DNA of 64,000 nucleotides from Thermoleophilia bacterium (lineage in GTDB: Bacteria; Actinomycetota; Thermoleophilia; BMS3ABIN01). The DNA lies in the NCBI GenBank assembly GCA_014859345.1, contig JACUUL010000005.1:1072-65071 (forward strand). Direction: 5' to 3'. Under the pieces are notes generated by a model. The model worked only from the letters and a program-made list of their open reading frames with translations, searched no databases and was not told where the DNA came from. Positions within the stretch are counted from its first letter, which is position 1. Each line of letters starts with the position of its first letter. Shown here in pieces: positions 3,999 to 44,538 of the stretch. The position numbers and the translations under genes were made by a program.

Positions 3999-5234
3999 AT
4001 GAGCGGCCGCCGCGTGGCCATAACAGGAATTGGCGTGATTTCGCCGCTGGGCATCGGTCTGGAAACCTTTTGGGATGCGCTGGTGTCGGGCAGGTCTGGC
4101 GCTGGTCCCATCACCCAGTTTGACGCGTCCGAATTCCGCGTGCGCATCGCCGCGGAAGTCAAGGATTTCGATCCTGCGGAATGGATGGAAAAAAAGAAGG
4201 CTCGCCGCATGGACCGGTTCGCGCAGTACTCGGTGGCCGCGGCCAGGATGGCCGTGGAGGACGCCTCCCTGGATGTCGCCGGGGACGCTGAAAAAATCGG
4301 CGCCATGGTAGCCAGCGGCATAGGCGGGGTAAAAACCTTTGAGAAGGAGACCGGAAACCTGATCAGAAAGGGGCCGGACCGGGTTAGCCCCCTGTTCATC
4401 CCCATGGAGATCGCAAATATGGCCTCCGCGCAAGTATCCATCGAGCTGGGCGTCAAGGGACCGGTAAGCACCGTATGCACGGCATGCGCCGCCGGCAACA
4501 ACGCCATCGGCGACGCGTTCGAGATAGTCAAGCGCGGCGCGGCCGACGTCATGCTGGCCGGGGGCAGCGAAGCCTCGGTGTCGCCCGTAGGAATAGCCGC
4601 CTTTGCCGCCATGCGGGCCTTGTCGGAAAGGAATGACGAACCTGAGCGGGCGAGCCGGCCCTTTGACCGCGACCGAGACGGTTTTGTCATGGGCGAAGGA
4701 GCGGCCATTCTGGTGCTGGAGGAAATGGAGAGAGCCAAAGACCGGGGCGCACGAATCTACGCGGAGATTTCCGGTTACGGCATGAGCTCGGACGCGTATC
4801 ACATCAGCGCCCCGGAGCCCGGAGGAGAAAATGCGGCCCGGGCCATGACTGCGGCGCTAAAGGAAGCGCAGCTATCAGCCGCGGACCTCGACTATATCAA
4901 CGCTCACGGCACCTCTACCCCGCTGGGCGACGAGATCGAGACGCGAGTGATCAGGACGGCCCTCGGAGAGCACGCGGACAGGGTGGCTGTCAGCTCAACC
5001 AAGTCAATGACAGGGCACTGCTTGGGGGCGGCCGGGGCGCTGGAGGCGGCGGTGTGCGTTCTGGCAATCGAGCGTGGAGTCATTCCCCCGACCATAAATC
5101 TCGACAATCCCTGTCCAGGATGCGACCTGGATTATGTCCCCAATCAGGCCAGGGAACGGCAGGTCACGGTGGCGGCATCCAACTCCTTCGGTTTTGGCGG
5201 CCACAACGTTACCCTCATCTTTCGCGCTCACTGA
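3999..5234 (+). CDS. fabF: 3-oxoacyl-ACP synthase II
   Basis: 'RRVAITGIGVISPLG' and the KAS II catalytic Cys/His/His regions. Starts 48 nt after fabG with no acpP between. Confidence 0.9.
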   Translation: MSGRRVAITGIGVISPLGIGLETFWDALVSGRSGAGPITQFDASEFRVRIAAEVKDFDPAEWMEKKKARRMDRFAQYSVAAARMAVEDASLDVAGDAEKIGAMVASGIGGVKTFEKETGNLIRKGPDRVSPLFIPMEIANMASAQVSIELGVKGPVSTVCTACAAGNNAIGDAFEIVKRGAADVMLAGGSEASVSPVGIAAFAAMRALSERNDEPERASRPFDRDRDGFVMGEGAAILVLEEMERAKDRGARIYAEISGYGMSSDAYHISAPEPGGENAARAMTAALKEAQLSAADLDYINAHGTSTPLGDEIETRVIRTALGEHADRVAVSSTKSMTGHCLGAAGALEAAVCVLAIERGVIPPTINLDNPCPGCDLDYVPNQARERQVTVAASNSFGFGGHNVTLIFRAH

Positions 5235-11759: not shown

Positions 11760-11842
11760 AGCAGCGAAAAACCCCGCGACCCCCGGAAAAAGCCTGACTC
11801 CCGGCTGCGTTCTACCGCGGCAGCGTCAGGACCCGCGACGCG

Positions 11843-12901
11843 TCAGACCAGCACGTCGATCCGGCCGGTGTCGTCCTCCGCCTCCATGATTCCGATCTTC
11901 GCGTGCACGATCGTGCCCGCCTCCTTAAGCGCCGACTCCAGCTCATCGGCTTTTTCGGGCGGGCAGGAAATGAGCAAGCCTCCGGATGTCTGGGCGTCAG
12001 CTAGCAGCAGCCGTTCCGCCTGAGAGAGCCCCGGATCGAAATTGGTGAACGCCTGGACGAATTCCAGGTTGTTTTTAGTTCCGCCGGGGACAATGTTCAG
12101 GTCTTCGAAAACGAGGTCGCGCGCAGCCTGGATCGTAGGGACCGCCCGCGCGTGGATCCTGGCGCCTACGCCGCTACCCTGGGTCATCTCGCCCAGATGC
12201 CCCAGCAGGCCGTAGCCGGTAACGTCGGTGCAGGCGTTGACACCCACCTTCACCATTGCCTCCGCCGCCGCCCGGTTGAGCGTGGTCATGATCTCGGTCA
12301 CGCGCCTGATGGCTGCCTCGCTGGCAATGCCCCGCTTGATGGCGGTGGCGATGATTCCGGTGCCGATCGGTTTGGTCAGAAAGAGGACATCTCCTGCCTG
12401 CGCTGTGGAATTGTAGACGATCGCGGCCGGGTCGAGCACGCCGGTGACGGCAAGGCCGTACTTGGGCTCCTTGTCATCGATGGTATGGCCGCCCACGATC
12501 TCGATACCGGCCTCACGGGCCTTGTCGGCGCCGCCTTTCATCATCCTGGTCAAGATCTCCAGCGGCATGCCCCGGGTATGGAAACCGACTATATTAAGCG
12601 CGAACATCGGGCTGGCTCCCATGGCGTAGATATCGCTTAACGAATTGGCAACCGCTATGGCTCCGTAATCGTAGGGATCGTCGACGATAGGAGTGAAATA
12701 ATCGACTGTCTGAATGATTGCCAGATCGTCGGTTATCTGGTAAACAGCGCAATCATCGCCGGTGTTTATGCCCACCAGCACGTTGGGATCGCGCACCGGA
12801 GGCAGCTCCCTGAGAATCTTTTGCAAGTCCGACGGACTTATCTTGCAGGCTCAGCCGGCGCCGTGGGCCAGCTGGGTGAGCCGGATTTCCTGCTCTTCCA
12901 T
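11843..12901 (-). CDS. selD: selenide, water dikinase (selenophosphate synthetase); selenoprotein with in-frame UGA (Sec) at 12851-12853
   Basis: The track ORF (TTG start at 12826) has all SelD core motifs but lacks the catalytic N-terminus. Reading upstream in frame gives ATG (12899-12901), then MEEQEIRLTQLAHGAG-TGA-ACKISPSDLQKILREL. This matches the E. coli motif HGAGCGCKISP with Sec in place of Cys17. RBS GGGAGAGG lies upstream of the ATG. A hairpin starts 11 nt after the UGA. Confidence 0.85.
12822..12846 (-). ncRNA. candidate SECIS hairpin inside the selD coding sequence
   Basis: mRNA: UGA-GCCUGCAAGAU(11 nt)-AAGUCC-GUC-GGACUU. Inverted repeat AAGUCC/GGACUU, extended by GCAAG/CUUGC. Confidence 0.55.
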
Positions 12902-12948
12902 GAACCTCTCCCTTCTATGACGGTTTGTAATACTTAAGTATAATAGTT

Positions 12949-13734
12949 TTAAACGCCTGCCAAATCCAGAGCCATGCCCACCGCCGTGGCGGCTATCACG
13001 AGCGCCAGGACCTGCCGCAGCCGGCGTCTTCTGGTGATCTGCGATAAATATCCGCCTCCCTGAGCGCCCAGGAGAGCGCCTGCGATTAGAAAAACCGCCA
13101 TGGCCATCTCGACCTGTCCGGTCACCACTTTGCCGGCTGACCCTGCAAGGGCCGCCAGAAACACGATGCCGAGCGAACTGCCTATTGTCGTCCGGGTGGG
13201 GATTTTCAGCACATAAAGCAGGACCGGGATGATGATAAAGGCCCCCGATTGGCCCACCAGCCCTCCCACCAAGCCCAAGATTAACGCGCAGGCCGCCGCC
13301 AGGGGCCGGCTGAAATCGATCTCGGACGCGTGCGGTTCCTCAGAAGGCTCCTTTTTTGGAATGAGCATCATGACGGCGGCTATCAATGCCAGCACGACGA
13401 ATACACCCATCAACGCGCCGGCGGAGGCGAACCTGGAAAGCACGGCCCCGGTCAGCGAGGCAACAGCAATGATACCGCCCATCCACAGGACCAGTTCCCT
13501 GCTGACAAATTGGAACCGGCGATGGACGATGACACCGGAGCCGGTCGCGAACAGGCTCTGCACCATGGTGAGTCCGGCGACCACCTTCATGTCAGGATTT
13601 GCGACTCCGAGGGCCGGGGGTACGTACAGAAGCAGGGGGGCCATGATGATGCCGCCGCCGATTCCCAGCCAGCCGGAAAAGAAGCCTCCAACGAGGCCGA
13701 GGCCGAGCAATGTTATGGCCAGCTCGATGGTCAT
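12949..13734 (-). CDS. TauE/SafE (DUF81) family anion permease
   Basis: 261 aa, 7-8 TM helices, Gly-rich internal repeats typical of TauE/SafE. Lies 47 nt upstream of selD on the same strand. Confidence 0.65.
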   Translation of the reverse strand: MTIELAITLLGLGLVGGFFSGWLGIGGGIIMAPLLLYVPPALGVANPDMKVVAGLTMVQSLFATGSGVIVHRRFQFVSRELVLWMGGIIAVASLTGAVLSRFASAGALMGVFVVLALIAAVMMLIPKKEPSEEPHASEIDFSRPLAAACALILGLVGGLVGQSGAFIIIPVLLYVLKIPTRTTIGSSLGIVFLAALAGSAGKVVTGQVEMAMAVFLIAGALLGAQGGGYLSQITRRRRLRQVLALVIAATAVGMALDLAGV

Positions 13735-20381: not shown

Positions 20382-20813
20382 TTAACGTGCTTCAGTTCCG
20401 GGACACGTCAATTCCTTTTCAATCAGTCCGCGCACCCGGATAGCCGCCGCCGCGACTTCGGCCGAGAGCCCGCCGTCCCGGGGCATGACATTTCCTACCT
20501 GCACGGCGAATACGAGGACCTCTGGATCGATTCCTTTCAGGCGGGCGCTGGTGATCAGGTAAGGCAGGCCCATGCCATGGATATTGTTGGAACGCAGATT
20601 CATGATGCCAGCCTCGTCGGGATGGAATTTGAAGATGGCGCCCGGACTGGCTCCGCAGTCGATGGCGTCCACCGCGATAACCAGGTCATAATCCAGGAAA
20701 TATCTGATCAGCGCCATGCCGGCCGTGGCCCCGGTGACAAGCTCGACTCCGGGAGGCACCGATCCGGGATCGAACCCCTCAACCACCGCCACGCCCACTC
20801 CGTCATCGGCCAT
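20382..20813 (-). CDS. hydrogenase maturation endopeptidase (HyaD/HybD/HycI family)
   Basis: 143 aa with 'DDGVGV' and 'AVDAIDCG' motifs. Last gene of the hydrogenase operon. Confidence 0.7.
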   Translation of the reverse strand: MADDGVGVAVVEGFDPGSVPPGVELVTGATAGMALIRYFLDYDLVIAVDAIDCGASPGAIFKFHPDEAGIMNLRSNNIHGMGLPYLITSARLKGIDPEVLVFAVQVGNVMPRDGGLSAEVAAAAIRVRGLIEKELTCPGTEAR

Positions 20814-20875
20814 AAGGGTGTTGCCGATGCCCAGGACGGCTATCTTGTTTGGAGGACGTATCTTCTCTCAGCCTC

Positions 20876-21538
20876 TCAGCCCTGGCTGGAAGCCCGGGAC
20901 TCCGGAGCTTTCGGCTCGCGCCAGGCGAACATCATACGCCACTCTCTCAGCACCTCCGCCATTGTCAGGTAGATATGTACGCCCACTGTGATGATGAAGG
21001 CCCACATGATCAGATAGTGATACGTGCGCATGGCGGCCAGGCCGCCCAGGACGTTCGTCATCGGCGCGAACAACCCCCTTGTCGGAGCCCATAGAGCCAG
21101 GCCCGTGAGAAATGACAGGGGGATGAGGATAAAGGCCCAGAGCAGGTAAGTGTACTTCTGCAGCGGATTGAATTTGTAGACGCTGGGATATGTGTCCCGC
21201 AGGAACAGGTAATACTTGATCGTTTCCCTGGGCTTTGATTCCCCGGTCCTCCTGAGCGGGCTGAACCACTTGTAATCGGGCCCCTTGACCCTCCCGCCCG
21301 GAGGCGCGGAGCCGGCGCCAAAGAAAGCCCAGTAGAGGCGAGTCACCGTGGTGAGGACGAAGGTCCACATGGCGATCTGGTGGATCGTGATCATGTAGCC
21401 CATGGCGCCTCCGAAAAACGGGCTGTTGATGTAGAAACCCGTGAAGACCAGCAGGATCAGAGACGTCAGGTGTACGCCGTGCATGATTATCGCGGGCAGC
21501 GGATGCTCTTCTCTTGTCGGCGGTATCCGTCCGGCCAT
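20876..21538 (-). CDS. Ni/Fe-hydrogenase b-type cytochrome subunit
   Basis: 'HPLPAIIMHGVHLTSLILLVFTGFY' HyaC/HydC signature, 4 TM helices with His ligands. Start taken at 'MAGRIP'. The coordinate is +/-1 because my hand reading of 21480-21541 disagreed with the track. Confidence 0.65.
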   Translation of the reverse strand: MAGRIPPTREEHPLPAIIMHGVHLTSLILLVFTGFYINSPFFGGAMGYMITIHQIAMWTFVLTTVTRLYWAFFGAGSAPPGGRVKGPDYKWFSPLRRTGESKPRETIKYYLFLRDTYPSVYKFNPLQKYTYLLWAFILIPLSFLTGLALWAPTRGLFAPMTNVLGGLAAMRTYHYLIMWAFIITVGVHIYLTMAEVLREWRMMFAWREPKAPESRASSQG

Positions 21539-21548
21539 GTCAGACCTC

Positions 21549-23180
21549 CTAGCGCACCTGGAACTTGAGGACCTGGTTGTTTTTCGGTTCAATCACGTGA
21601 ACCGCGCAGGCCATTCATGGGTCGAATGTGTGTACCGTTCTCAGTATTTCCAGCGGTCTGGCCGGATCGGCGACCGGAGTGCCTACCAGCGCCTCTTCCA
21701 CCGGGCCGCGCACCCCGTCGTCGTCCCGGGGCGAGAGGTTCCAGTTGGAAGGAGGCACCGCCGCATATGAGTCGATCTTCCCCCCGCTGATGCGCGCGTA
21801 GTGGGCCAGGGCTCCCCGGGAAGCGTCCCAGCCGCTGTGGCCGTCACCCTCGCGGCCGTAGTCCGGCTCCCTGTAGACCTCCTTGTTGCCGGCGCCGATA
21901 TTTTCCAGCAGCTCGTCGGCCCACCTGACGGCGTTGTCCGAGTTGACCTTGGCCTTTATGACACGGGCCGCCACCCGGCCCAGATCTGACAGGAGTATCT
22001 CCGGCTGGCCGGCCGCTCCGACAGCCGCCAGGGTGTCGTCGACCAGCTGTACCACTTCCGGCCGGCCGGTCAGATAAGCCACCAGAACCTGGGCGAGGGG
22101 GCCGACCTCCATGGGCCGGTTCTGGTCGCCGTAGCGGACCGCCTGGGTCCAGTCGTACTTGCCCTCGGGCAGCTCTTCGCCTTCCATCGGCGGCAGCTCC
22201 GTGAACTGGATCGGCTCCTGGCCCGAGTCCAACGGGTGTTTGCCGTCGCCCACGCTGTCATCGAACCAGGAAGACTTGGTGTACATCCTGGTCTCGTCCG
22301 GATGAACCTCCTGAAGCTCAAGCTGGCCATCGAAAATGGCGCCCCGGGGGAAGAGACGGTCGTAAGGATCCTGGCTCGCCTCGTCCAGGACACCCCAGGA
22401 AAGGAAATTGCCGACTCCCTGGCCGGTACCGGCCAGGTCCTCGCCGTAGATGGGCGCGATCGCCAGCAGGTCAGGAACCATGACCGTGTCTATGAAGTTC
22501 TTGACCTCTTCCATGCGCGACTTGTAGAAGGCGATCTCGTCCAGCGCAGGAAGCTGAGTGACCCCGCCGGGTATGTAGTGGTGGATCATTGGGAAGCGGC
22601 CGCCCAGTATCGCGTTGCACTCATTGGCCTTCGACTGAATGTCGATGGACTGCAGGTAATGCGCGGTGAGCTCGAGATCGAGCTCCGGCGGCAGCTTGTA
22701 TGCGGGATGATCCCAGTACATGTTCGCGAACGGTCCCAGCTGTCCGGAATCCACAACCGCCCTTACCTGGTCCTGCACCGCCTGCAACGAAGGAGTTTCC
22801 GGACTGGCATTAAGGGCGTTGGGAACGTTGACATAATCGAAAGCGTTGAGCACATAGAACCAGAGTATGTGGTCGTAGCCGATCTGCGCCGCCTCGGTCA
22901 TGTTGCGGATGAGTCGGGCGTTGTCGTCCACCGTCTCCATACCCAGGGCGGTCTCCACCGCCCGTACTGAGTTAAAAGCATGCGGGTTGGGACAGACGCC
23001 GCAGATGCGCTGGGCGAACTGCCAGATGCTTTTGGGGTCGCGCCCTTTCATGAAAATCTCGAAGCCGCGGAAGAGGGTGGCGGTGTTCCAGGCGTCTGTG
23101 ATAACGCCGTCCTCCACCTGGCAGGTAATGCGAAGATGGCCTTCGATGCGGGTTATTGGGTCGATGACTACTTTCGGCAT
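21549..23180 (-). CDS. [NiFeSe] hydrogenase large subunit; selenoprotein with in-frame UGA (Sec) at 21615-21617
   Basis: N-terminal 'RIEGH' and 'RICGVC' Ni-binding motif. The track ORF stops after '...RTVHTFDP'. That stop is TGA, and continued reading gives U-MACAVHVIEPKNNQVLKFQVR then TAG (21549-21551). 'DPUxxCxxH' is the [NiFeSe] C-terminal Ni-ligand motif (DPCxxCxxH in [NiFe] enzymes). Confidence 0.85.
21586..21603 (-). ncRNA. candidate SECIS hairpin in the hydrogenase large-subunit mRNA
   Basis: UGA-AUGGCCUGCGC(11 nt)-GGUUCA-CGUGAU-UGAACC. Perfect 6-bp stem, 6-nt loop. Confidence 0.55.
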
Positions 23181-23224: not shown

Positions 23225-24328
23225 TCATTCTTCTGTCTCTTCCTTGCCCGCCACCGGGCCTCCCCTGCCGAACCGTCCCTTGGCGACCTGTCCCACTGCA
23301 TGGGCGCCAATGCCGATGGCCGTGGCCGCGCCCAGGGTCACGCCGATCTGGGTGGGCGTGATGTCGCCCGGCAGCCGGATTCCCGATTCCTTGTCGTAAA
23401 ACGGAGTCAGCTTGTCCCAGAAATCCGGCTCGGAACAACCGATGCAGGGACCGGCCTCAACCGGCCAGCTTATCTCACCGTTCCACTTGGTCTTGGGGCA
23501 GGGGGCATGGGTGACCGGACCCTTGCAGCCCACTTTGTACAGGCACCACCGTTTTTCCGATGCCTCGTCACCGAAGCGCTCCACAAATCTGCCGTTGTCA
23601 AAATGGCCGCGGCGCTCGCAGTTGTCGTGCACGGTCTCGTCGAAAAGGAACAACGGGCGGCCAAAAGAATCCAGCTCGGGCAGCTCGTTGTGCACCAGCA
23701 CATAGGCCAGAATGGCGATAGTGTCCTCGGCGTTGCCGGGGCAGCGCGGCGAGTTGATCACGGTGACGTCGGACAGCCCGGCGTCCTGGCGCAAATAGTC
23801 GGCCACTCCCTTGGCGCCGGTGGGATTTGGCGCAGCCGCCTGGATGTTGCCGTAGCAGGCGCAGGAGCCGATGGCAATAGTCGCGTTGGCTCTCTGGTAA
23901 GCCTCCAGCACTATATCGGCGGCGGTCCGGCCGTGGATGGTGATAGCCTCGGGTATCTCGGTGGCGACGGCCCCTTCGACGATATAAAAGAAATCATCGG
24001 TGGCAAGCGTGTCCTGAAAGCTTTGCTCAGCCTCGTCTCCGGCGGGCGCCATAACCGCCTCGTGATAATCGAGGGAGATCTGCTGCAGGATAAGCTGGGC
24101 CGGAGTCGGCTTGCGACTCTGAAGCAGGTTGACCGAACAGCCCAGGCATTCCTGGAAGAGGGACCAGATTACCCGCGGTCTCATGGCTACCTCCTCAAAG
24201 GCCTGGGCGACTCGCGGAGCCGCCAGCGGTCCGCTCAGGCCTATGAGGGCCGCCAGGGTGCCGCAGCTTTTGAGAAAATCCCGTCGCGACAATCCTGGAA
24301 AAATGGACAGTTCCCGGTGATCTTCCAT
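23225..24328 (-). CDS. [NiFe(Se)] hydrogenase small subunit with twin-arginine signal
   Basis: 'SRRDFLK' Tat motif and Fe-S cluster cysteine patterns. ATG at 24328 is preceded by GGGAGG; the track ORF has a 27-aa upstream extension. Confidence 0.8.
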   Translation of the reverse strand: MEDHRELSIFPGLSRRDFLKSCGTLAALIGLSGPLAAPRVAQAFEEVAMRPRVIWSLFQECLGCSVNLLQSRKPTPAQLILQQISLDYHEAVMAPAGDEAEQSFQDTLATDDFFYIVEGAVATEIPEAITIHGRTAADIVLEAYQRANATIAIGSCACYGNIQAAAPNPTGAKGVADYLRQDAGLSDVTVINSPRCPGNAEDTIAILAYVLVHNELPELDSFGRPLFLFDETVHDNCERRGHFDNGRFVERFGDEASEKRWCLYKVGCKGPVTHAPCPKTKWNGEISWPVEAGPCIGCSEPDFWDKLTPFYDKESGIRLPGDITPTQIGVTLGAATAIGIGAHAVGQVAKGRFGRGGPVAGKEETEE

Positions 24329-24592
24329 ATCCTGCCTCCCTGCCTCGTTTTTTTGCGGCATGCCAGCAAGTTTCTTAATCCATTCTGTGCCGGTGGGGTC
24401 ATTGGCCATGTTTTACCCCGCCGGCTTACTTTTTTCCGCCAAGCCCTGTCTTTAATCTTTTCGCAATCATATCACGTTCTTCTTTTCTGGCTCTTCATTC
24501 CTGTTTCCTGTTTTTCCATCCGGTTCCGGTGATAACTTTGCCGGCGGGACAGGCGAGGCTCAGCGGCGGTAGAATAAACGGACATTGCGGAG

Positions 24593-36864: not shown

Positions 36865-37218
36865 TCAGACAGAGGCGCGGACTTTCCCGGTCAATTTACC
36901 GATGGCATCCTTCCGTCCCACGAGGATGAGCACCAGATCGCGGTTAAGGGGAGCCAGAATCAGATCGTGGCCGGTCAGCTCCAGGTTCAGCAGCCGAGGC
37001 AGGGTGGTGCCCAGTTCCTCGGCCATCGTTTTGAAAGACGCCAGCATGGAAGCGGCATGCGCGGCTATGACTTCCGGATCGGGGCCATTATCTCCCGACC
37101 ACGCCACCAGCAACCCGTCCAGGGATGAAAGACCGGCGGCGTCTATCCCTTCTATCTCGGTGTAGGGCCTGATAATGGCCTCAAGCTCATCCCTCTCAAT
37201 GCGGTTTTTTTCCATCAA
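36865..37218 (-). CDS. Roadblock/LC7 (MglB-like) domain protein
   Basis: 117 aa with the Roadblock fold pattern. Overlaps parB by 4 nt. Confidence 0.55.
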   Translation of the reverse strand: MMEKNRIERDELEAIIRPYTEIEGIDAAGLSSLDGLLVAWSGDNGPDPEVIAAHAASMLASFKTMAEELGTTLPRLLNLELTGHDLILAPLNRDLVLILVGRKDAIGKLTGKVRASV

Positions 37219-38099
37219 TATGATTCCTCCAGTGTATCGATGATCTTGCGCAGCTGTTCCTCGCCGGAGAACTCGATCTCGATCCGGCCGGCTTTCCCGG
37301 CCCAGCGCACCTTTACCGGCAGCCGGAAAGCTGAATAAAGAGCATCAGTGGCTTCGTCCATGACCTCTTGCCTCACCGGCGGCGCCTGAGGCCGGCGATT
37401 GTCGCCTCCGGCTGTTTCCTTGCGGGCGAGGTCCTCTGTCTGCCGCACGGACAATCCACGCGCCGCCGCCCGGGCTGCCAGCTTTTTCTGTTTCAGGCGG
37501 TCAGGAACCGAGAGTAACGCCCGCCCGTGTCCCTCCGACAGCTGTCCATGTTCGATCAGCTTCTGAACCTCGTCCGGTAAGTCAAGCAGCCGGATTGTGT
37601 TGGCTATCGCGGAGCGGCTGCGCCCCAGCCGGGTGGCCAGATCCTCCTGGGTGGTGCCGAACTCCTCTTGCAGGTTGGCGTAGGCCCGCGCCGTGTCCAT
37701 TGGATTCAGGTCCTCACGATTAATGTTCTCGATCAAGGCCAATTCAAGGGATTCGGCATCGCCCGCCGATCTGACAATAGCCGGCACGGTTTCCAGGCCG
37801 GCGATCCGCGCCGCCCGCCAGCGGCGCTCCCCAGCCACCAGTTCGTAGCCGCCTCCCTTTTTTCTGACGATCACGGGCTGCACCAGGCCCACGGCGGCAA
37901 TGGAGCGGGCCAGCTCGTGCAGCTTCTCATCGTCAAAAAAAGTGCGGGGCTGTGAAGGGTTCACGGAAATTTGATTAATGGACAATTCCTGGTAGGATTC
38001 CGCGGCGCTTGCCGCCTCGCTTTCAGAGGCCACGCTCCCGCTCTCCCCGATCAGCGCCGATAGGCCTTTGCCCAGACCCTTGGTGTTTTTACTACTCAC
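37215..38099 (-). CDS. parB: chromosome partitioning protein ParB
   Basis: 'KGLGKGLSAL' and 'GERRWRAA' ParB box. Overlaps parA by 8 nt. Confidence 0.9.
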   Translation of the reverse strand: MSSKNTKGLGKGLSALIGESGSVASESEAASAAESYQELSINQISVNPSQPRTFFDDEKLHELARSIAAVGLVQPVIVRKKGGGYELVAGERRWRAARIAGLETVPAIVRSAGDAESLELALIENINREDLNPMDTARAYANLQEEFGTTQEDLATRLGRSRSAIANTIRLLDLPDEVQKLIEHGQLSEGHGRALLSVPDRLKQKKLAARAAARGLSVRQTEDLARKETAGGDNRRPQAPPVRQEVMDEATDALYSAFRLPVKVRWAGKAGRIEIEFSGEEQLRKIIDTLEESY

Positions 38100-38892
38100 G
38101 CTCTACCACCTCCGTCGCCAGATCGAAATAGGCATCCGAGCCCGCGCAGGCCGGATCATAATGGGAAATAGGTTTACCAAAACTGGGAGCTTCGCTCAAC
38201 CTGACATTGCGGGGGATGACGGTGCGGTAGGTCAGGTTGGGGAAATGGGACCGCACTTCGCCGATAACCTGAGCCGAAAGCCTGGTGCGGGGGTCGTACA
38301 TGGTCATGAGAAGGCCGGCTATCTGGAGGCGGGGATTGAGCCCGGACTGAACCGCTGCCACCGTCTTGAGCAACTGACCGAGGCCCTCCAGGGCGAAGTA
38401 CTCGCATTGGACCGGCACTATCAGCTTGTCTGCGGCAACCAGTGCGTTTACGGTCAGCAGGCAAAGCGAAGGCGGGCAATCAATGAATATATATGCGAAG
38501 TCACGGGAGATGGCGTTAATTGAATCGGCGAGGATGAACTCCCGCCTTTCCCGCTGTGGCAGCTCCACGGCAGCGCCCGCCATTTCCGGGGTCGAAGGGA
38601 TTATGTAAAGATTGGAAATGCTGGCGGACGCGATGGCAGATTCCGAGGTTACGTTTCCGGATAGCACATCGTAGGAAGTCCCCGGCGCCTGCGATTCATC
38701 CAGACCAAGGCTGTGCGTTGCGTTGCATTGGGGGTCGAGGTCGATCAGGAGGGTCGTTGCTCCGGCCTCGGCAAGGCAAACCGCGGTGTTAACGCAAGTG
38801 GTTGTCTTGCCGACGCCGCCCTTCTGGTTGGCGACAGCATAGACGAGACCGGAGCCGTTAGCCCGCGACGCTGATGAAGGCATATCGTGCAC
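38092..38892 (-). CDS. parA: chromosome partitioning ATPase ParA/Soj
   Basis: 'ANQKGGVGKTTT' deviant Walker A. Confidence 0.9.
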   Translation of the reverse strand: MHDMPSSASRANGSGLVYAVANQKGGVGKTTTCVNTAVCLAEAGATTLLIDLDPQCNATHSLGLDESQAPGTSYDVLSGNVTSESAIASASISNLYIIPSTPEMAGAAVELPQRERREFILADSINAISRDFAYIFIDCPPSLCLLTVNALVAADKLIVPVQCEYFALEGLGQLLKTVAAVQSGLNPRLQIAGLLMTMYDPRTRLSAQVIGEVRSHFPNLTYRTVIPRNVRLSEAPSFGKPISHYDPACAGSDAYFDLATEVVERE

Positions 38893-39034
38893 GGAGGAAT
38901 TCTAACACGGTGCGGGACAGGTGACCAGAGAAGGTCAAGGAAGCAGGGTTGCGCAGCATGGCGTTATTTGGCCTGGTGGCGGCGTAATCGGCGATCATTT
39001 CACCGCCGTCCGGAGCCGCAGACACGCAATTTTC

Positions 39035-39739
39035 TTAACCGCTCAGCGGCCGTTTTCGGGGGATTCCGGGACGGCGGGGGTATGCGGACGGCGTGTCCGC
39101 CGTCTTTTTGAATATCCAGACATGCAGGTTTTTAGCCTCTGGGTAGGGTTTAGCTGTTTCGACGCGGACCAGCTCGCCTCCGAGTGCTTTGCCGGCTGTT
39201 TTCGCAGCGGCGTCATCACCCGGCTCGCGGGCACCTCTTTGCAACAGGGCATAGCCTCCCAGCCGTAACAGCGGAATAGAATACTCGAGCACTTCCGGCA
39301 ATGAGCCCACCGCGCGTGCCAGGGTCGCATCAAACGATTCCCGAAGGTCGGACCGCGCGGCTTCCTCGGCGCGGGCCGGCAGAACGCGGACGTTATCCAG
39401 GCCAAGCGCGGAGGCCGATCGCGAGACGAAATCGCTTTTCCTGCGGTTGGCCTCAATGAGAACGAATCTGCTCTGAGGCCTGGCTATTGCCAGCGGCAGG
39501 CCCGGGAAACCGGCGCCGCTGCCTATATCCGCCACTGCGGTTGCCTCAGCCAGCTCCGGCAACCGCAGCAGCCACAGGCTGTCATTGAAATGTACCCTGA
39601 CGATGTTCCGGGTGCCGGAGACCGCAGTCAGCTTGCTGTTTTTTTCCACGGCGACAAGGTCAAGGAGCTTTTCGAGCTGCGATATCTGACCGTCATTTAA
39701 GCGGCACTCTTTTTTTAGCTCTTGTTGCCAGTCGCTCAA
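39035..39739 (-). CDS. rsmG: 16S rRNA (guanine527-N7)-methyltransferase
   Basis: GidB family, 'DIGSGAGFPGLPLAI'. Overlaps mnmG by 4 nt. Confidence 0.85.
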   Translation of the reverse strand: MSDWQQELKKECRLNDGQISQLEKLLDLVAVEKNSKLTAVSGTRNIVRVHFNDSLWLLRLPELAEATAVADIGSGAGFPGLPLAIARPQSRFVLIEANRRKSDFVSRSASALGLDNVRVLPARAEEAARSDLRESFDATLARAVGSLPEVLEYSIPLLRLGGYALLQRGAREPGDDAAAKTAGKALGGELVRVETAKPYPEAKNLHVWIFKKTADTPSAYPRRPGIPRKRPLSG

Positions 39740-41595
39740 TGCCGGGCCTGGATATAAAGCGAAAGAACCGATACGTCGGCGGGAGAGACGCCGGCGATGC
39801 GCGAAGCCTGGCCCAGCGACGAGGGCCGGATGCGGGTCAGCTTTTCCCGGGCTTCGCTGGCGATACCCTTGAGGCTCATATAGTCAAGATCGTCCGGTAT
39901 ATATGTGGATTCCAGATGGTGCCAGCGTGAGATTTCGGCAAGCTGGCGCTCGATGTAACCTTCGTATTTGATTTCTATGCCGGCGCGCCGGACGGCGCCG
40001 CCGTCAGTAGCAAGGGATGTACTGCAGCCCGCCAGGGAAAGAACGGCAGAAATCGTCATTTCCGGCCTTTTTAGAATTTGCGCCGCGGATTGAGGCTCGG
40101 TCAGCGGGGAACTGCCTGCTTTCGCAAGAAGATCATTAGCCGTTGCTGACGGCCTTATTATTTTCGTTTTCAACATCATCAGAAGGCTTTTCATCTGGAT
40201 ATTTTCTTCCCTGACAGACTCCATGTTGCCGTCCGGAACCAGACCGAGCCGGTGCCCTATCGGTGCCAGGCGTTCATGAGCATTGTCGTGACGGAGCAAC
40301 AGGCGATATTCCGCGCGGGAAGTAAACATGCGATACGGTTCGTCGACATCCTTAGTGACCAGGTCATCGATCAAAACGCCGATGTACGCCTGGTCGCGCC
40401 GCAGGATCAGCGGATCCTCGCCGCGTACATAACGAGCGGCATTGATACCGGCGATCAAACCCTGGGCGGCGGCCTCCTCATAGCCGCTGGTGCCGTTTAT
40501 CTGGCCCGCCAGGAAGAGTCCCTCAATGGGTTTGGTCTCGAGACTGAGCTTGAGTTGGCTGGGGGGAGCGTAATCATATGCCACGGCATACCCGGGCCGC
40601 ATCAGCCGGGCATTTTCCAGGCCAGGCGTCGCCCGGATAATCTTCTCCTGCACCCATACTGGCATACTGGTAGTCAATCCCTGAAGGTAAAGCTCTTGTG
40701 TGTGCCGCCCCTCAGGCTCCACGAATACGGGATGGCGGTCCCTATCGGGGAATTTGACAACCTTGCGATCGATGGAAGGGCAATAACGGGGGCCTTTGCC
40801 GCTTACTGATCCCGTTCTGATAGGGGAAAGATGCAGATACTTCCTCACGACCTCATGGGTTTTTGCGGTAGTGTAGGTGAGGTAACAGGGAATCTGCTCG
40901 AATTTTTTTTGGCGCGAAAAAGGCGAGAAGGTTTCAGGATTCTCATCTCCCGGATCGACGGTCATCCGGTCAGGATCGATCGAACGGGCGTCGATCCGCG
41001 GCGGCGTAGCCGATTGGAATCGCTCAAGTTTCAGGCCGGTGTCCTCAAGGCTGCCTGAAAGCTCGAGCGAGGGCGGTTCGCCCATCCTTCCGGCAGGGAA
41101 ACGCTGATCACCCACGACGATGTTTCCCCGAAGAAAGGTGCCGCAGGCCAGTACGACGGCGCCGGCGGTGATCATGCTGCCATCAGTGAGTTCGATTCCC
41201 GTGGCTGTTTCACGTGAAACAACAAGCTTGGCGGCTGCGCCCTCGAGGATCTTCAGTGATGGCGCCGATGACAGAACCCGTTTCATATTGTCCTCGTAAA
41301 GTTTTTTATCCGTTTGCGCCCTCAATGCCCGGACCGCCGGGCCTTTGCCGGTATTGAGCATCTTCATCTGGATGAATGAGCGGTCGGTGTTGCGGCCCTG
41401 CTCGCCACCCAGGGCGTCGATCTCCCGTGTGAGCTGACCTTTGCCAACGCCGCCGACAGCGGGATTGCAGGGCATGAGCGCGATCTTCTCCAGGTTCAGG
41501 GTGATCAACAGAGTAGAGCGGTCCATGCGGGCAGCCGCTAGCGCCGCCTCACAGCCGGCATGGCCGCCTCCGACTACGACGACATCGAAAAACAT
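39736..41595 (-). CDS. mnmG: tRNA uridine-5-carboxymethylaminomethyl synthesis enzyme MnmG (GidA)
   Basis: 619 aa, 'DVVVVGGGHAGCEAA' FAD site. Full-length GidA. Confidence 0.9.
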   Translation of the reverse strand: MFFDVVVVGGGHAGCEAALAAARMDRSTLLITLNLEKIALMPCNPAVGGVGKGQLTREIDALGGEQGRNTDRSFIQMKMLNTGKGPAVRALRAQTDKKLYEDNMKRVLSSAPSLKILEGAAAKLVVSRETATGIELTDGSMITAGAVVLACGTFLRGNIVVGDQRFPAGRMGEPPSLELSGSLEDTGLKLERFQSATPPRIDARSIDPDRMTVDPGDENPETFSPFSRQKKFEQIPCYLTYTTAKTHEVVRKYLHLSPIRTGSVSGKGPRYCPSIDRKVVKFPDRDRHPVFVEPEGRHTQELYLQGLTTSMPVWVQEKIIRATPGLENARLMRPGYAVAYDYAPPSQLKLSLETKPIEGLFLAGQINGTSGYEEAAAQGLIAGINAARYVRGEDPLILRRDQAYIGVLIDDLVTKDVDEPYRMFTSRAEYRLLLRHDNAHERLAPIGHRLGLVPDGNMESVREENIQMKSLLMMLKTKIIRPSATANDLLAKAGSSPLTEPQSAAQILKRPEMTISAVLSLAGCSTSLATDGGAVRRAGIEIKYEGYIERQLAEISRWHHLESTYIPDDLDYMSLKGIASEAREKLTRIRPSSLGQASRIAGVSPADVSVLSLYIQARH

Positions 41596-41802
41596 CTCAC
41601 TGCTCCAGGCGGCGCCGCGCCAGGAAGCCTTTTCTGTTGTAACTACTTGTCATAATTTAATAATTGTGGTGGTACGACACCGTCCGGTTCGGGCCGATCT
41701 ATCGTTTTCGGCGCCGGCTTTTCTTAACTGTTTTTTGTTCGGCCGCGGCGCCTGATGGCTAGCTCACTCGAAGATGACACCCGGCGCACCAAACCAACAT
41801 AT

Positions 41803-42777
41803 TTATATTAGGTTGTCAAAAAATGCATCTTTTTCCAGAGACGTTGCCGCCGCGTTTATGCCTGCCATCAGCCCCTGCAGGGCAGCTTCGACGTAGCTGC
41901 CGGCGCCTGCCGCGCGGCCGGCGATGAACAGGCCGGGCCGCGAGATCGCTTCCATGCGCGCGTCCAGCTGGCCACTGCCAAGCGCCAGATAGCTGACCGA
42001 ATAAGAGGCGCGGGTCATCCACGCCCCGGGTTCCCGCATCTTTGACCTGATCCCGGTCAGCTGTTGACGGCGGTTGCCACTCGTTGAAATTTCCTGAACG
42101 AACAGCTCGCCGGTCAGGCAGCCATCAGCCACCCGCGTGTGATTGGCGGCAACGCTGCGCGAATCAACGCGGGGAAGGCCGGACGCGTAAACGGGGACGA
42201 GTTCCAGGCCCAGGTTTCGCAGGCATACCGCCAAAGAATTGGCGGGTATCTCGCCGCGCCGGCCGCCAGGATGCTTATGGCCGGCATCGTCCACCTCGCC
42301 CTTGAGGAAGGTTCCGGCGGCAACCACCACGGCGCCTCCCCGGAATTCCTCGCCCAGATTCGTGCCCACGCGCCACGCCGGTTCATCGTCCGCCTTATTG
42401 CCCGGCTCCAGCAAGGAGACCAGCGATTGCCGCGGCTCGAGACCGGCCGCTGACTCGATAGACTCCTTGTAAGCGAGCCCCAGCTGGCGCCGGTCGATGA
42501 CAATCTTTCCGGGAACATGCCCGCCGGCGTCGGCGGTCACTTTTTCCAGGGAGAGGAATTCCGGAAGCTTTCCCCCCAGGCGCCGCATCACACGAAGCCT
42601 CTCAGTTCTCATATCTTTCAGGTCGCCCGCCAGTATGGGCGTACCGGGAGGGTATCCGGCAGTATCCAGGCTGATAGTCAGGCAAAGGGTGCGGGCGCCG
42701 GCTTTCGCCGCGGCCAGGGCGGCCTCACATCCTGCCGGTCCGGCGCCTATCACGATTACGTCATATTCCGGGATCAT
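41803..42777 (-). CDS. truncated, divergent GidA/MnmG-like FAD-dependent oxidoreductase paralogue (~325 aa)
   Basis: 'YDVIVIGAGPAGCEAALAAAKAG' mirrors the MnmG N-terminus, but the protein lacks the MnmG C-terminal tRNA-binding half. ATG at 42777 (track TTG at 42795). Confidence 0.55.
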   Translation of the reverse strand: MIPEYDVIVIGAGPAGCEAALAAAKAGARTLCLTISLDTAGYPPGTPILAGDLKDMRTERLRVMRRLGGKLPEFLSLEKVTADAGGHVPGKIVIDRRQLGLAYKESIESAAGLEPRQSLVSLLEPGNKADDEPAWRVGTNLGEEFRGGAVVVAAGTFLKGEVDDAGHKHPGGRRGEIPANSLAVCLRNLGLELVPVYASGLPRVDSRSVAANHTRVADGCLTGELFVQEISTSGNRRQQLTGIRSKMREPGAWMTRASYSVSYLALGSGQLDARMEAISRPGLFIAGRAAGAGSYVEAALQGLMAGINAAATSLEKDAFFDNLI

Positions 42778-42960
42778 GTACGGCAGGGAATCCAAGCACA
42801 GTCACCCATATAATGAATGTTCCTCATTTTTAAGTTCCTTGCTCACGGCGCCCCGGCTTGGTTTTTCAGTGCTGGCGGCCTCTGACACAGCCTGTCACGG
42901 AAGGCTGATCCCGGGGGCTCCAGCAGGAGAAGAATCAACAACAAAGCGGCTGCCAAAGCC

Positions 42961-44343
42961 TTACTTTCCTATGCAGAACTCCTGGAAGATGACATCCAGA
43001 AGATCCTCCAGCATCTCCTCGCCGGTGATCTCGCCCAGCGAACCGGTCGCGGAGCGCAACTCCTCAGCGATCAGCTCCGGGCCCAGTCCCACCCGAAAAC
43101 CCTGAGCGGCCCGGGAAACCGAGGCGGCCGCCCGTTCCAGCGCCAGCTTGTGGCGCTCGTGAGTGACTATGGGCCCCTCCAGCGGAGGCAGGCTGCCCCC
43201 CAGCACGAAGTCGGCAATCTTCTCCTTGAGCTCCGTAAGGCCCTGGCGCGTCAACGCGGATATCAAGACCGGTCTGGCTGGCAGCAATCCCTGATTGAAC
43301 GCCGCCGGCCGGCCCCTTAACATATCCGACTTGTTGATAATATATATCGCCCTGTCGGCCGGCACCGAGGTCAGCAGCGTCCGGTCGTGGTCGTCCTCCC
43401 GCAAGCTGCCGTCAAACAAACAGAGGATCAGATCCGCCTCCTCGAGGGCGCGGTGGGCACGCTCAATCCCTATCTGCTCCACCTCATCGCCCGCAGGCCT
43501 CAGGCCTGCCGTGTCAATGAGCCGAAGCGGAATGCCGCACACGTTGATAATCTCCTCGATGGTATCGCGGGTGGTGCCGGGCGTTTCAGTCACGATCGCC
43601 CTTTCGCGCATCAGCAAGGAATTCAGCAGGCTGGATTTGCCCACGTTCGGCTTCCCGACGATTGCCGTGCGAACTCCCTGGCTTATGACCCTGCCCACGA
43701 AAGCGGAGTCGATCAGCTCACCAATGCTGGCTTCGATCTCCTCCAGCTGTTCCTTGTTGACGGCAAAGTCCGGCTCGCCGGGATCCTCATCGGCAAAGTC
43801 GATCTCCGCCTCGACGCCGGCCATCACGCGCAGGAGGCTCTGCCTGAGCGCCTTGACCTCCCGGGAGATCGACCCCTCCAGCTGGGCCATGGCCACCTTC
43901 AGGCCGGCTTCGGTTTTGGCGGAGATTATCTGGGCCACGCTTTCGGCCTGGGCCAGATCGATGCGGCCGTTCAGGAACGCCCTGCGGGTGAACTCTCCCG
44001 GCGAAGCCAGAGCCGCCCCCTGCTTCAAAAACAGGGAAAGGATTTTTTGCTGGGCTACCGTGCCGCCATGACAGTTGACCTCGACGATGTCCTCCCGGGT
44101 ATAGGTTCCCGGACCCCGCATGACGCTCACCAGCACCTCATCCACGAGGGAACCGCTGTCAGGTTCAAAAACCGCCCCGTAGTGAATCGTGTGGGAGTCG
44201 GCGTCCGCCAGCCGCAGTCCCTTGACCGACCGGAATACCGCGTCACAGATGCCGACGGCCGCCGGTCCGGTCATGCGCACGATGCCGATCGCGCCGGTAC
44301 CGAGGGGCGTGGAAATGGCGGCGATTGTAGGAATTTCCTGCAT
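42961..44343 (-). CDS. mnmE: tRNA modification GTPase MnmE (TrmE)
   Basis: G-domain motifs ('GKPNVGKSSLLN') and C-terminal 'CIGK'. Start taken at 'MQEIPTIAAISTPLG'; the track ORF has a 25-aa extension. Confidence 0.85.
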   Translation of the reverse strand: MQEIPTIAAISTPLGTGAIGIVRMTGPAAVGICDAVFRSVKGLRLADADSHTIHYGAVFEPDSGSLVDEVLVSVMRGPGTYTREDIVEVNCHGGTVAQQKILSLFLKQGAALASPGEFTRRAFLNGRIDLAQAESVAQIISAKTEAGLKVAMAQLEGSISREVKALRQSLLRVMAGVEAEIDFADEDPGEPDFAVNKEQLEEIEASIGELIDSAFVGRVISQGVRTAIVGKPNVGKSSLLNSLLMRERAIVTETPGTTRDTIEEIINVCGIPLRLIDTAGLRPAGDEVEQIGIERAHRALEEADLILCLFDGSLREDDHDRTLLTSVPADRAIYIINKSDMLRGRPAAFNQGLLPARPVLISALTRQGLTELKEKIADFVLGGSLPPLEGPIVTHERHKLALERAAASVSRAAQGFRVGLGPELIAEELRSATGSLGEITGEEMLEDLLDVIFQEFCIGK

Positions 44344-44538
44344 AGGGCGTATTATAGCAGCGCCAACCATGGCAGGGAGAAAACAGAACAGGTGATTCAG
44401 AATCACCATCAGCGGCATCTAATCAATGGCAGCGCGAGGGCCGGATGCAAGTTACCGTAAAGCCATGGAAACGATAGCGGGCTGACTTCTTTTCTCCGGA
44501 ACGGGTAAAATAACCGGGTTCCCTATCGAGGAGGCAAA

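Follow-up and report, generated by a model that had tools for sequence, protein, structure and literature searches.

What happens at the in-frame UGA codon that interrupts the gene for selenophosphate synthetase (selenide, water dikinase; SelD) in an uncultured Thermoleophilia bacterium? The gene, selD, lies on the minus strand of a stretch of 64,000 nucleotides (nt) of contig JACUUL010000005.1 (assembly GCA_014859345.1), hereafter the window, whose coordinates are used throughout. The codon could end translation, be read as a standard amino acid, or be read as selenocysteine (Sec). The comparisons reported here make it highly probable that standard bacterial Sec insertion at codon 17 would give a full-length Sec-containing SelD.

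The reading frame of selD and the place of its UGA

The mechanical open reading frame (ORF) of selD occupies 11843-12826 (-), starts with TTG and encodes 327 aa, and the initial annotation had taken it to be cut short at a recoded UGA. We found the truncation as described. Upstream of the TTG, the minus strand reads in frame ATG (12901-12899), MEEQEIRLTQLAHGAG, TGA (12853-12851) and then ACKISPSDLQKIL, and the frame is closed by an ordinary TGA at 11845-11843 (-). The ATG, the ribosome-binding site, the in-frame TGA and the frame of 352 aa were thus all present as claimed, and the selD genes of relatives start at the position equivalent to ATG 12901. It had also been argued that stop-to-stop calling shortens the protein, and this holds beyond the mechanical ORF: the public gene call gives a SelD of 317 rather than 352 aa. 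The public calls come from the Logan assembly of SRR11917416, a metagenomic data set, in which contigs of 33 kb and 11 kb both fall within the window.

For profile scoring, the UGA was replaced by cysteine (Cys) in the 352-aa protein. This read-through protein scored 390.1 bits against TIGR00476, the selD equivalog model (cutoff 125), and 371.9 bits against NF002098 (cutoff 299), the latter match covering residues 1-348; the read-through extension improves the match to full-length SelD models. Weaker matches to the ThiL, HypE and PurM models are usual in this superfamily, and the AIRS and AIRS_C domains (PF00586 and PF02769) were found on the public call. Among solved structures, the top match of the extended protein was E. 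coli SelD (3u0o), with which it is co-linear over residues 1-333 and shares the HGAG-x-x-CKISP motif and the AIRS/AIRS_C fold. The loop HGAG-U-ACK(ISP) lies column for column over HGAGCGCK(ISP) of 3u0o, which places the UGA at Cys17 and keeps Lys20; the E. coli enzyme differs in having Cys17 and needing no recoding. The second structure match was the Aquifex aeolicus enzyme (2yye), where residue 17 falls on the Sec-derived position. The proposed alignment of the extended translation to SelD, with U on the catalytic Cys, was therefore obtained. These matches show that the gene at 11843-12901 (-) encodes a full-length SelD and that its UGA is placed at the catalytic Cys/Sec position.

Sec at this place in SelD has ample precedent. 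Among bacterial selenoproteins none are more widespread than SelD and FdhA, and Rubrobacter xylanophilus is among the Actinobacteria listed with Sec-SelD (PMC1794560). In a survey of prokaryotic genomes, Sec was encoded by about 19% of SelD genes, in every case at this one position, and their bacterial Sec insertion sequence (bSECIS) elements were recovered with RNAz (PMC4561486). With the Sec-SelD (SPS2) proteins of Haemophilus influenzae, Aquifex aeolicus and R. xylanophilus the window protein shares the TIGR00476 family, the same N-terminal loop position for Sec, the x-C/A/G/S-K that follows it, a stem-loop in the coding region right after the UGA, and the existence of Cys orthologues (PMC4561486, PMC1794560). 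It differs from them in its host, an uncultured Thermoleophilia-like actinobacterial lineage for which we found no specific description, and in the candidate SECIS of its clade, which, with 6-7 pairs and a 3-nt loop, is unusually small.

Conservation of the UGA and of a hairpin downstream

A scan restricted to one genome per species gave 80 related selD loci, in which the frame of the homologous codon was anchored by tblastn. The codon is TGA in 63 of them and TGC or TGT in 17; the loci were picked by similarity to a Sec-type query, so this ratio is not a population estimate. TGA-bearing loci are spread over many phyla, and the five nearest ones (70-79% identity; metagenome-assembled genomes (MAGs) of Thermoleophilia and Actinomycetes) all have TGA. 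In this close clade the selD alignment is gapless, and amino acids before the UGA are kept while synonymous sites vary (CAC/CAT, CTG/CTC, GCC/GCG/GCT), from which it follows that the 16 codons 5′ of the UGA are translated and under protein-level selection. Downstream of the UGA, too, conserved amino acids go with synonymous variation.

The initial annotation had also described a hairpin, AAGUCC/GGACUU, beginning 11 nt past the UGA, at the spacing of bacterial SECIS elements. The hairpin exists, and its spacing matches that of the minimal E. coli fdhF element. Its onset is exactly 11 nt past the UGA (UGA, GCCUGCAAGAU, AAGUCC), which is nucleotide 15 counted from the U of the UGA. The arms, AAGUCC at 12839-12834 and GGACUU at 12830-12825, form six Watson-Crick pairs, and a U-G pair (12840/12824) makes seven; the TTG from which the truncated ORF was wrongly begun (12826-12824) sits within the 3′ arm. 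The minimal SECIS of E. coli fdhF spans nucleotides 15-31 from the U of the UGA, with a bulged U17 and with G23 and U24 in the loop (PMC8659212). The window hairpin resembles it in the onset at nucleotide 15 and in the G-U that opens the apical loop (G21, U22), but has a 3-nt loop and a stem of six unbroken pairs, with no bulged U and no support for a lower stem. The bSECIS hallmark is a guanine as the first or second nucleotide of the loop (PMC13582414), and in the window hairpin G comes first.

Sec-type and Cys-type relatives differ in this region. When the 48 nt past the codon were compared with dinucleotide shuffles, in an unbiased test that took all distinct sites, the mean z was -1.32 for 62 Sec-type sites versus -0.37 for 16 Cys-type sites (Mann-Whitney p = 7e-5). 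The best local hairpin with an onset 6-25 nt past the codon had -8.3 kcal/mol at Sec-type and -4.7 at Cys-type sites (p = 0.001), and a G at loop position 1 or 2 was present at 54 of 62 Sec-type versus 6 of 16 Cys-type sites (Fisher p = 1.4e-4). Loss of SECIS structure in SelD that reverted to Cys has been reported in work cited by PMC13582414. At the level of individual pairs, pair 16-28 covaries, being G-C in 17 sequences and A-U in 6. Taken with its loop and spacing, the comparison suggests that the window hairpin would work like a bSECIS while differing in detail from the fdhF type.

A longer SECIS with a lower stem UGCAA/UUGCA, a 5-nt bulge and an upper stem looked attractive in the window and in the related locus L006, and was rejected, its lower helix being 59% paired across relatives, no different from shuffles.

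Elsewhere among the relatives we observed a second, stronger hairpin, GGCGCAG-GUG-CUGCGCC, about 28-46 nt past the selD UGA and over the codons A-Q-V-L-R. It occurs in loci L007, L009-L012 and L065 and in many Planctomycetota and Chloroflexota Sec-selD loci; unlike these, the window's clade has no stronger second hairpin about 28 nt downstream. This distribution suggests that the distance of the functional SECIS from the UGA differs between lineages.

A second UGA in a hydrogenase gene and the reading of both codons

About 9 kb from selD, a group-1 hydrogenase large subunit gene carries a UGA of its own. The ORF at 21615-23180 ends at position 501 of the 508 positions of the PF00374 model, and this short-ending match exposed the codon. 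Past the TGA at 21617-21615 the frame continues as MACAVHVIEPKNNQVLKFQVR, so that the C-terminus would read ...HTFDP-UGA-MACAVH, giving the nickel-binding motif DP-U-xx-C-xx-H, with the N-terminal RICGVC (RxCGxC) at residue 58. The UXXC motif is found in [NiFeSe] hydrogenases (PMC13582414). The codon is TGA in 15 of 15 metagenomic relatives of at least 64% identity and TGC in two distant ones. Here, too, a hairpin follows, with an onset 10 nt past the UGA, a z of -2.0 on 58 nt and -2.8 on 23 nt, and in relatives a compensatory variant, CCGUCCA/UGGACGG, with the loop conserved.

In one Cys-type relative of the hydrogenase (L106), a hairpin GCCGUC...GACGGC is still found just past the TGC, at the SECIS position. 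It could be either a remnant or a pre-existing structure, a matter discussed for Group 4 hydrogenases (PMC13582414).

The predicted Sec hydrogenase resembles the classical [NiFeSe] enzymes of Desulfomicrobium baculatum (1cc1) and Desulfovibrio vulgaris Hildenborough (2wpn) in the C-terminal DP-U-xx-C-xx-H motif, where Sec takes the place of Cys as first ligand, in the N-terminal RxCGxC motif, in a small subunit exported by the twin-arginine translocation (Tat) pathway and in the presence of a HycI-type maturation protease gene. In other respects it is a standard [NiFe] hydrogenase, both subunits scoring far higher against standard [NiFe] structures: the large subunit reached 422 bits against 1frf (about 420 for 1frf/1yq9) and 372 against E. 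coli Hyd-2, compared with 254 against 1cc1 and 233 against 2wpn. In the classical [NiFeSe] small subunit, as in the Dm. baculatum structure, a fourth Cys stands at the medial cluster and all clusters are [4Fe-4S], and standard [NiFe] enzymes have Pro at this position. The window hydrogenase differs from the classical enzymes in having Pro there and a cytochrome b gene, besides its match of only 233-254 bits. On these comparisons, the switch from Cys to Sec in this hydrogenase may have happened independently of the classical [NiFeSe] clade.

Two unrelated genes thus have a conserved UGA where Sec is known to occur, and in both a hairpin follows at the same spacing, which makes Sec decoding in this organism very likely. 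In the mechanism that we propose for selD, translation would begin at ATG 12901, and the ribosome would pass the UGA at 12853-12851 without terminating. SelB would bind the coding-region stem-loop 11 nt past the UGA and deliver Sec-tRNA(Sec), and after Sec17 translation would run for another 335 codons to the ordinary TGA stop. The catalytic loop HGAG-U-ACK would then have Sec in place of the E. coli Cys17. The selenophosphate made by this SelD would feed SelA and the synthesis of Sec-tRNA(Sec), supporting synthesis of SelD itself and of the [NiFeSe]-type hydrogenase.

Several observations weigh against Sec insertion at the selD codon. In a search confined to the 64-kb window, neither selA nor selB was among the roughly 45 genes annotated with Pfam, and ARAGORN found no tRNA of any kind, hence no tRNA-Sec. 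The selD hairpin is short (6-7 pairs, 3-nt loop) and without the bulged U seen in E. coli fdhF; its stability reaches a z of -1.9 on the 26-nt core, and it is no stabler than shuffles when 54-71 nt are folded. Its six-pair structure is 82% paired across 29 sequences with a GUCC-N3-GGAC core (9-55% with partners slid), but this subset was chosen for containing the motif and the percentage is inflated. The codons AGT CCG TCG GAC are invariant at all synonymous sites in the five sequences of the close clade, but this conservation is of modest significance (p about 0.02), and 24 of 189 sliding windows reach as high a score. There was also no Rfam match, either for the window at the gathering score or for 12700-12960 at E <= 10. 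The lack of an Rfam match is no surprise, bacterial SECIS elements being so diverse that one model does not cover them (PMC12013277).

ARAGORN likewise found no tRNA in 11 of 12 related loci. In locus L065, from an Actinomycetota MAG, a tRNA-SeC with anticodon TCA stands at 4960-5058 (+), immediately 3′ of a Sec-type selD. Among the roughly 45 Pfam-annotated genes of the window there was no selU/ybbB, fdhA or other classical selenoprotein family except the hydrogenase, and an all-frame scan for ORF pairs joined by TGA was too noisy at 60% GC to reveal further selenoproteins.

The alternative that survives best is recoding of the UGA to Cys or another standard amino acid, through a Cys tRNA of the tRNA(ReC) type or near-cognate read-through. 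Cys serves at SelD position 17 in 17 of the 80 relatives, no gene in the window indicates which tRNA reads the UGA, and work cited by PMC13582414 describes tRNA(ReC) as recoding UGA to Cys where SECIS elements are present. We nevertheless consider such recoding improbable here: Sec at exactly position 17 is a documented and common state of SelD (PMC4561486, PMC1794560), the UGA of the hydrogenase gene falls on the classical Sec ligand of [NiFeSe] hydrogenases, and SelD's own role is to supply Sec synthesis.

If instead the UGA terminated translation, the locus would be a pseudogene or would make only a truncated SelD, begun internally at TTG 12826 or farther downstream. Such a truncated product would be without the glycine-rich loop that bears Sec/Cys17 and Lys20, although the start of the mechanical ORF at TTG 12826 and the 317-aa public call would both fit it. 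The good ribosome-binding site precedes ATG 12901 and not the TTG, which lies inside the hairpin 3′ arm, and the 16 codons before the UGA are kept as protein, with varying synonymous sites, in the relatives of 70-79% identity. Retention of TGA in 63 loci over many phyla is also unlike a nonsense mutation. Since the UGA codon is conserved, an internal start and a pseudogene are both contradicted, and we regard termination as very unlikely.

Weakest is the view, hardly credible to us, that a TGC or TGT, only one base away, was misread as TGA in sequencing or assembly of the metagenome, or that UGA is generally reassigned (codes 4 and 25). The conserved codon contradicts an error, TGA recurring at the same place in the separately assembled genomes of five close relatives and of dozens of distant ones. 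General reassignment is excluded by ordinary usage: of 45 family-confirmed genes in the window, 19 end in TGA, more than in any other stop, and selD is one of them. Standard Sec insertion at codon 17 is the reading that we retain.

The locus and its surroundings

The Sec-SelD described here is a known phenomenon, a well-known enzyme variant correctly recognised in an undescribed, uncultured lineage. Its biological weight is small: Sec-SelD is one of the two selenoproteins commonest in bacteria, and both the site of recoding and the SECIS have been catalogued across prokaryotes. The consequences for annotation are more tangible. Selenoprotein genes are usually mis-annotated (PMC13582414), and here the public calls cut both SelD (317 versus 352 aa) and the hydrogenase large subunit (521 rather than 543 aa), each losing its catalytic residue; anyone reconstructing the metabolism of this Thermoleophilia-like lineage would thus overlook its Sec decoding. 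Two leads arise from the region: a group-1 hydrogenase that is of standard [NiFe] type apart from its predicted Sec, and a permease of the TauE/SafE (TSUP) family that recurs in the selD operon.

The TSUP gene of the window possibly is co-transcribed with selD (Table 1). TSUP-like ORFs were found at 7 of the 80 selD loci, all directly adjoining selD on the same strand, and the relatives with this arrangement belong to Thermoleophilia, Planctomycetota and Desulfosporosinus, that is, to three phyla. The closest relatives without the TSUP gene retain the other neighbouring genes. The known selD-linked candidates are YedE, YedF, DUF3343 and LysR_Se, and in the literature that we searched, no link of TauE, TSUP or DUF81 to selD or selenium was found. 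We put forward, tentatively and as rather less likely than its negation, that the permease is an unrecognised selenium transporter, co-transcribed with Sec-SelD, which would import selenite or a related selenium oxyanion or move selenide.

Table 1. Features of the window and TSUP-like ORFs beside selD at related loci
Feature	Sequence	Position	Strand	Basis or remark
Terminator-like hairpin and T-run, weak	window	11772..11788	-	consensus scan; downstream of selD stop
selD, full-length coding sequence (predicted)	window	11843..12901	-	352 codons including Sec17; 1059 nt from ATG to stop
Candidate SECIS hairpin of selD, U-AAGUCC / GUC loop / GGACUU-G	window	12824..12840	-	fold and comparison with relatives
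In-frame UGA, predicted Sec codon, residue 17	window	12851..12853	-	Cys17 alignment and conservation among relatives
Shine-Dalgarno-like sequence GGGAGAGG	window	12905..12912	-	read from sequence; GGAG core 6 nt before ATG 12901-12899
TauE/SafE (TSUP) membrane protein gene	window	12949..13734	-	PF01925, 139 bits; 47 nt upstream of selD, same strand
HycI-type maturation protease gene	window	20382-20867		follows hydrogenase genes
Cytochrome b subunit gene	window	20876-21592		follows hydrogenase large subunit
Group-1 hydrogenase large subunit, predicted selenoprotein	window	21549..23180	-	543 codons; PF00374, 464 bits, and read-through translation
SECIS-like hairpin of hydrogenase, CGGUUCA / CGUGAU / UGAACCG	window	21585..21604	-	7 pairs; onset 10 nt past UGA
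Hydrogenase small subunit	window	23225-24409		Tat motif; reads WPVEAGPCIGC
TSUP-like ORF beside selD	L001	2-787		
TSUP-like ORF beside selD	L002	9132-9920		
TSUP-like ORF beside selD	L006	2374-3282		
TSUP-like ORF beside selD	L007	9151-9984		
TSUP-like ORF beside selD	L009	9178-9984		
TSUP-like ORF beside selD	L012	2610-3431		
TSUP-like ORF beside selD	L054	7013-7819		

The weak terminator-like hairpin downstream of selD comes from a consensus scan in which the count of such hairpins was not above shuffle expectation. Farther along the window, a parB-parA-rsmG-mnmG-(GidA-like)-mnmE cluster at 37215-44418 (-) is typical of the surroundings of a chromosome origin. The window showed no dnaA, and its cumulative GC skew had no clear turning point. 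The GidA-like member of the cluster is a 330-aa ORF at 41803-42795 (-), by the full-length mnmG (39736-41595). Of the 391 positions of the GIDA model its match covers just 1-215, and the candidates for its identity are a truncated paralogue, a TrmFO-like gene and a remnant.

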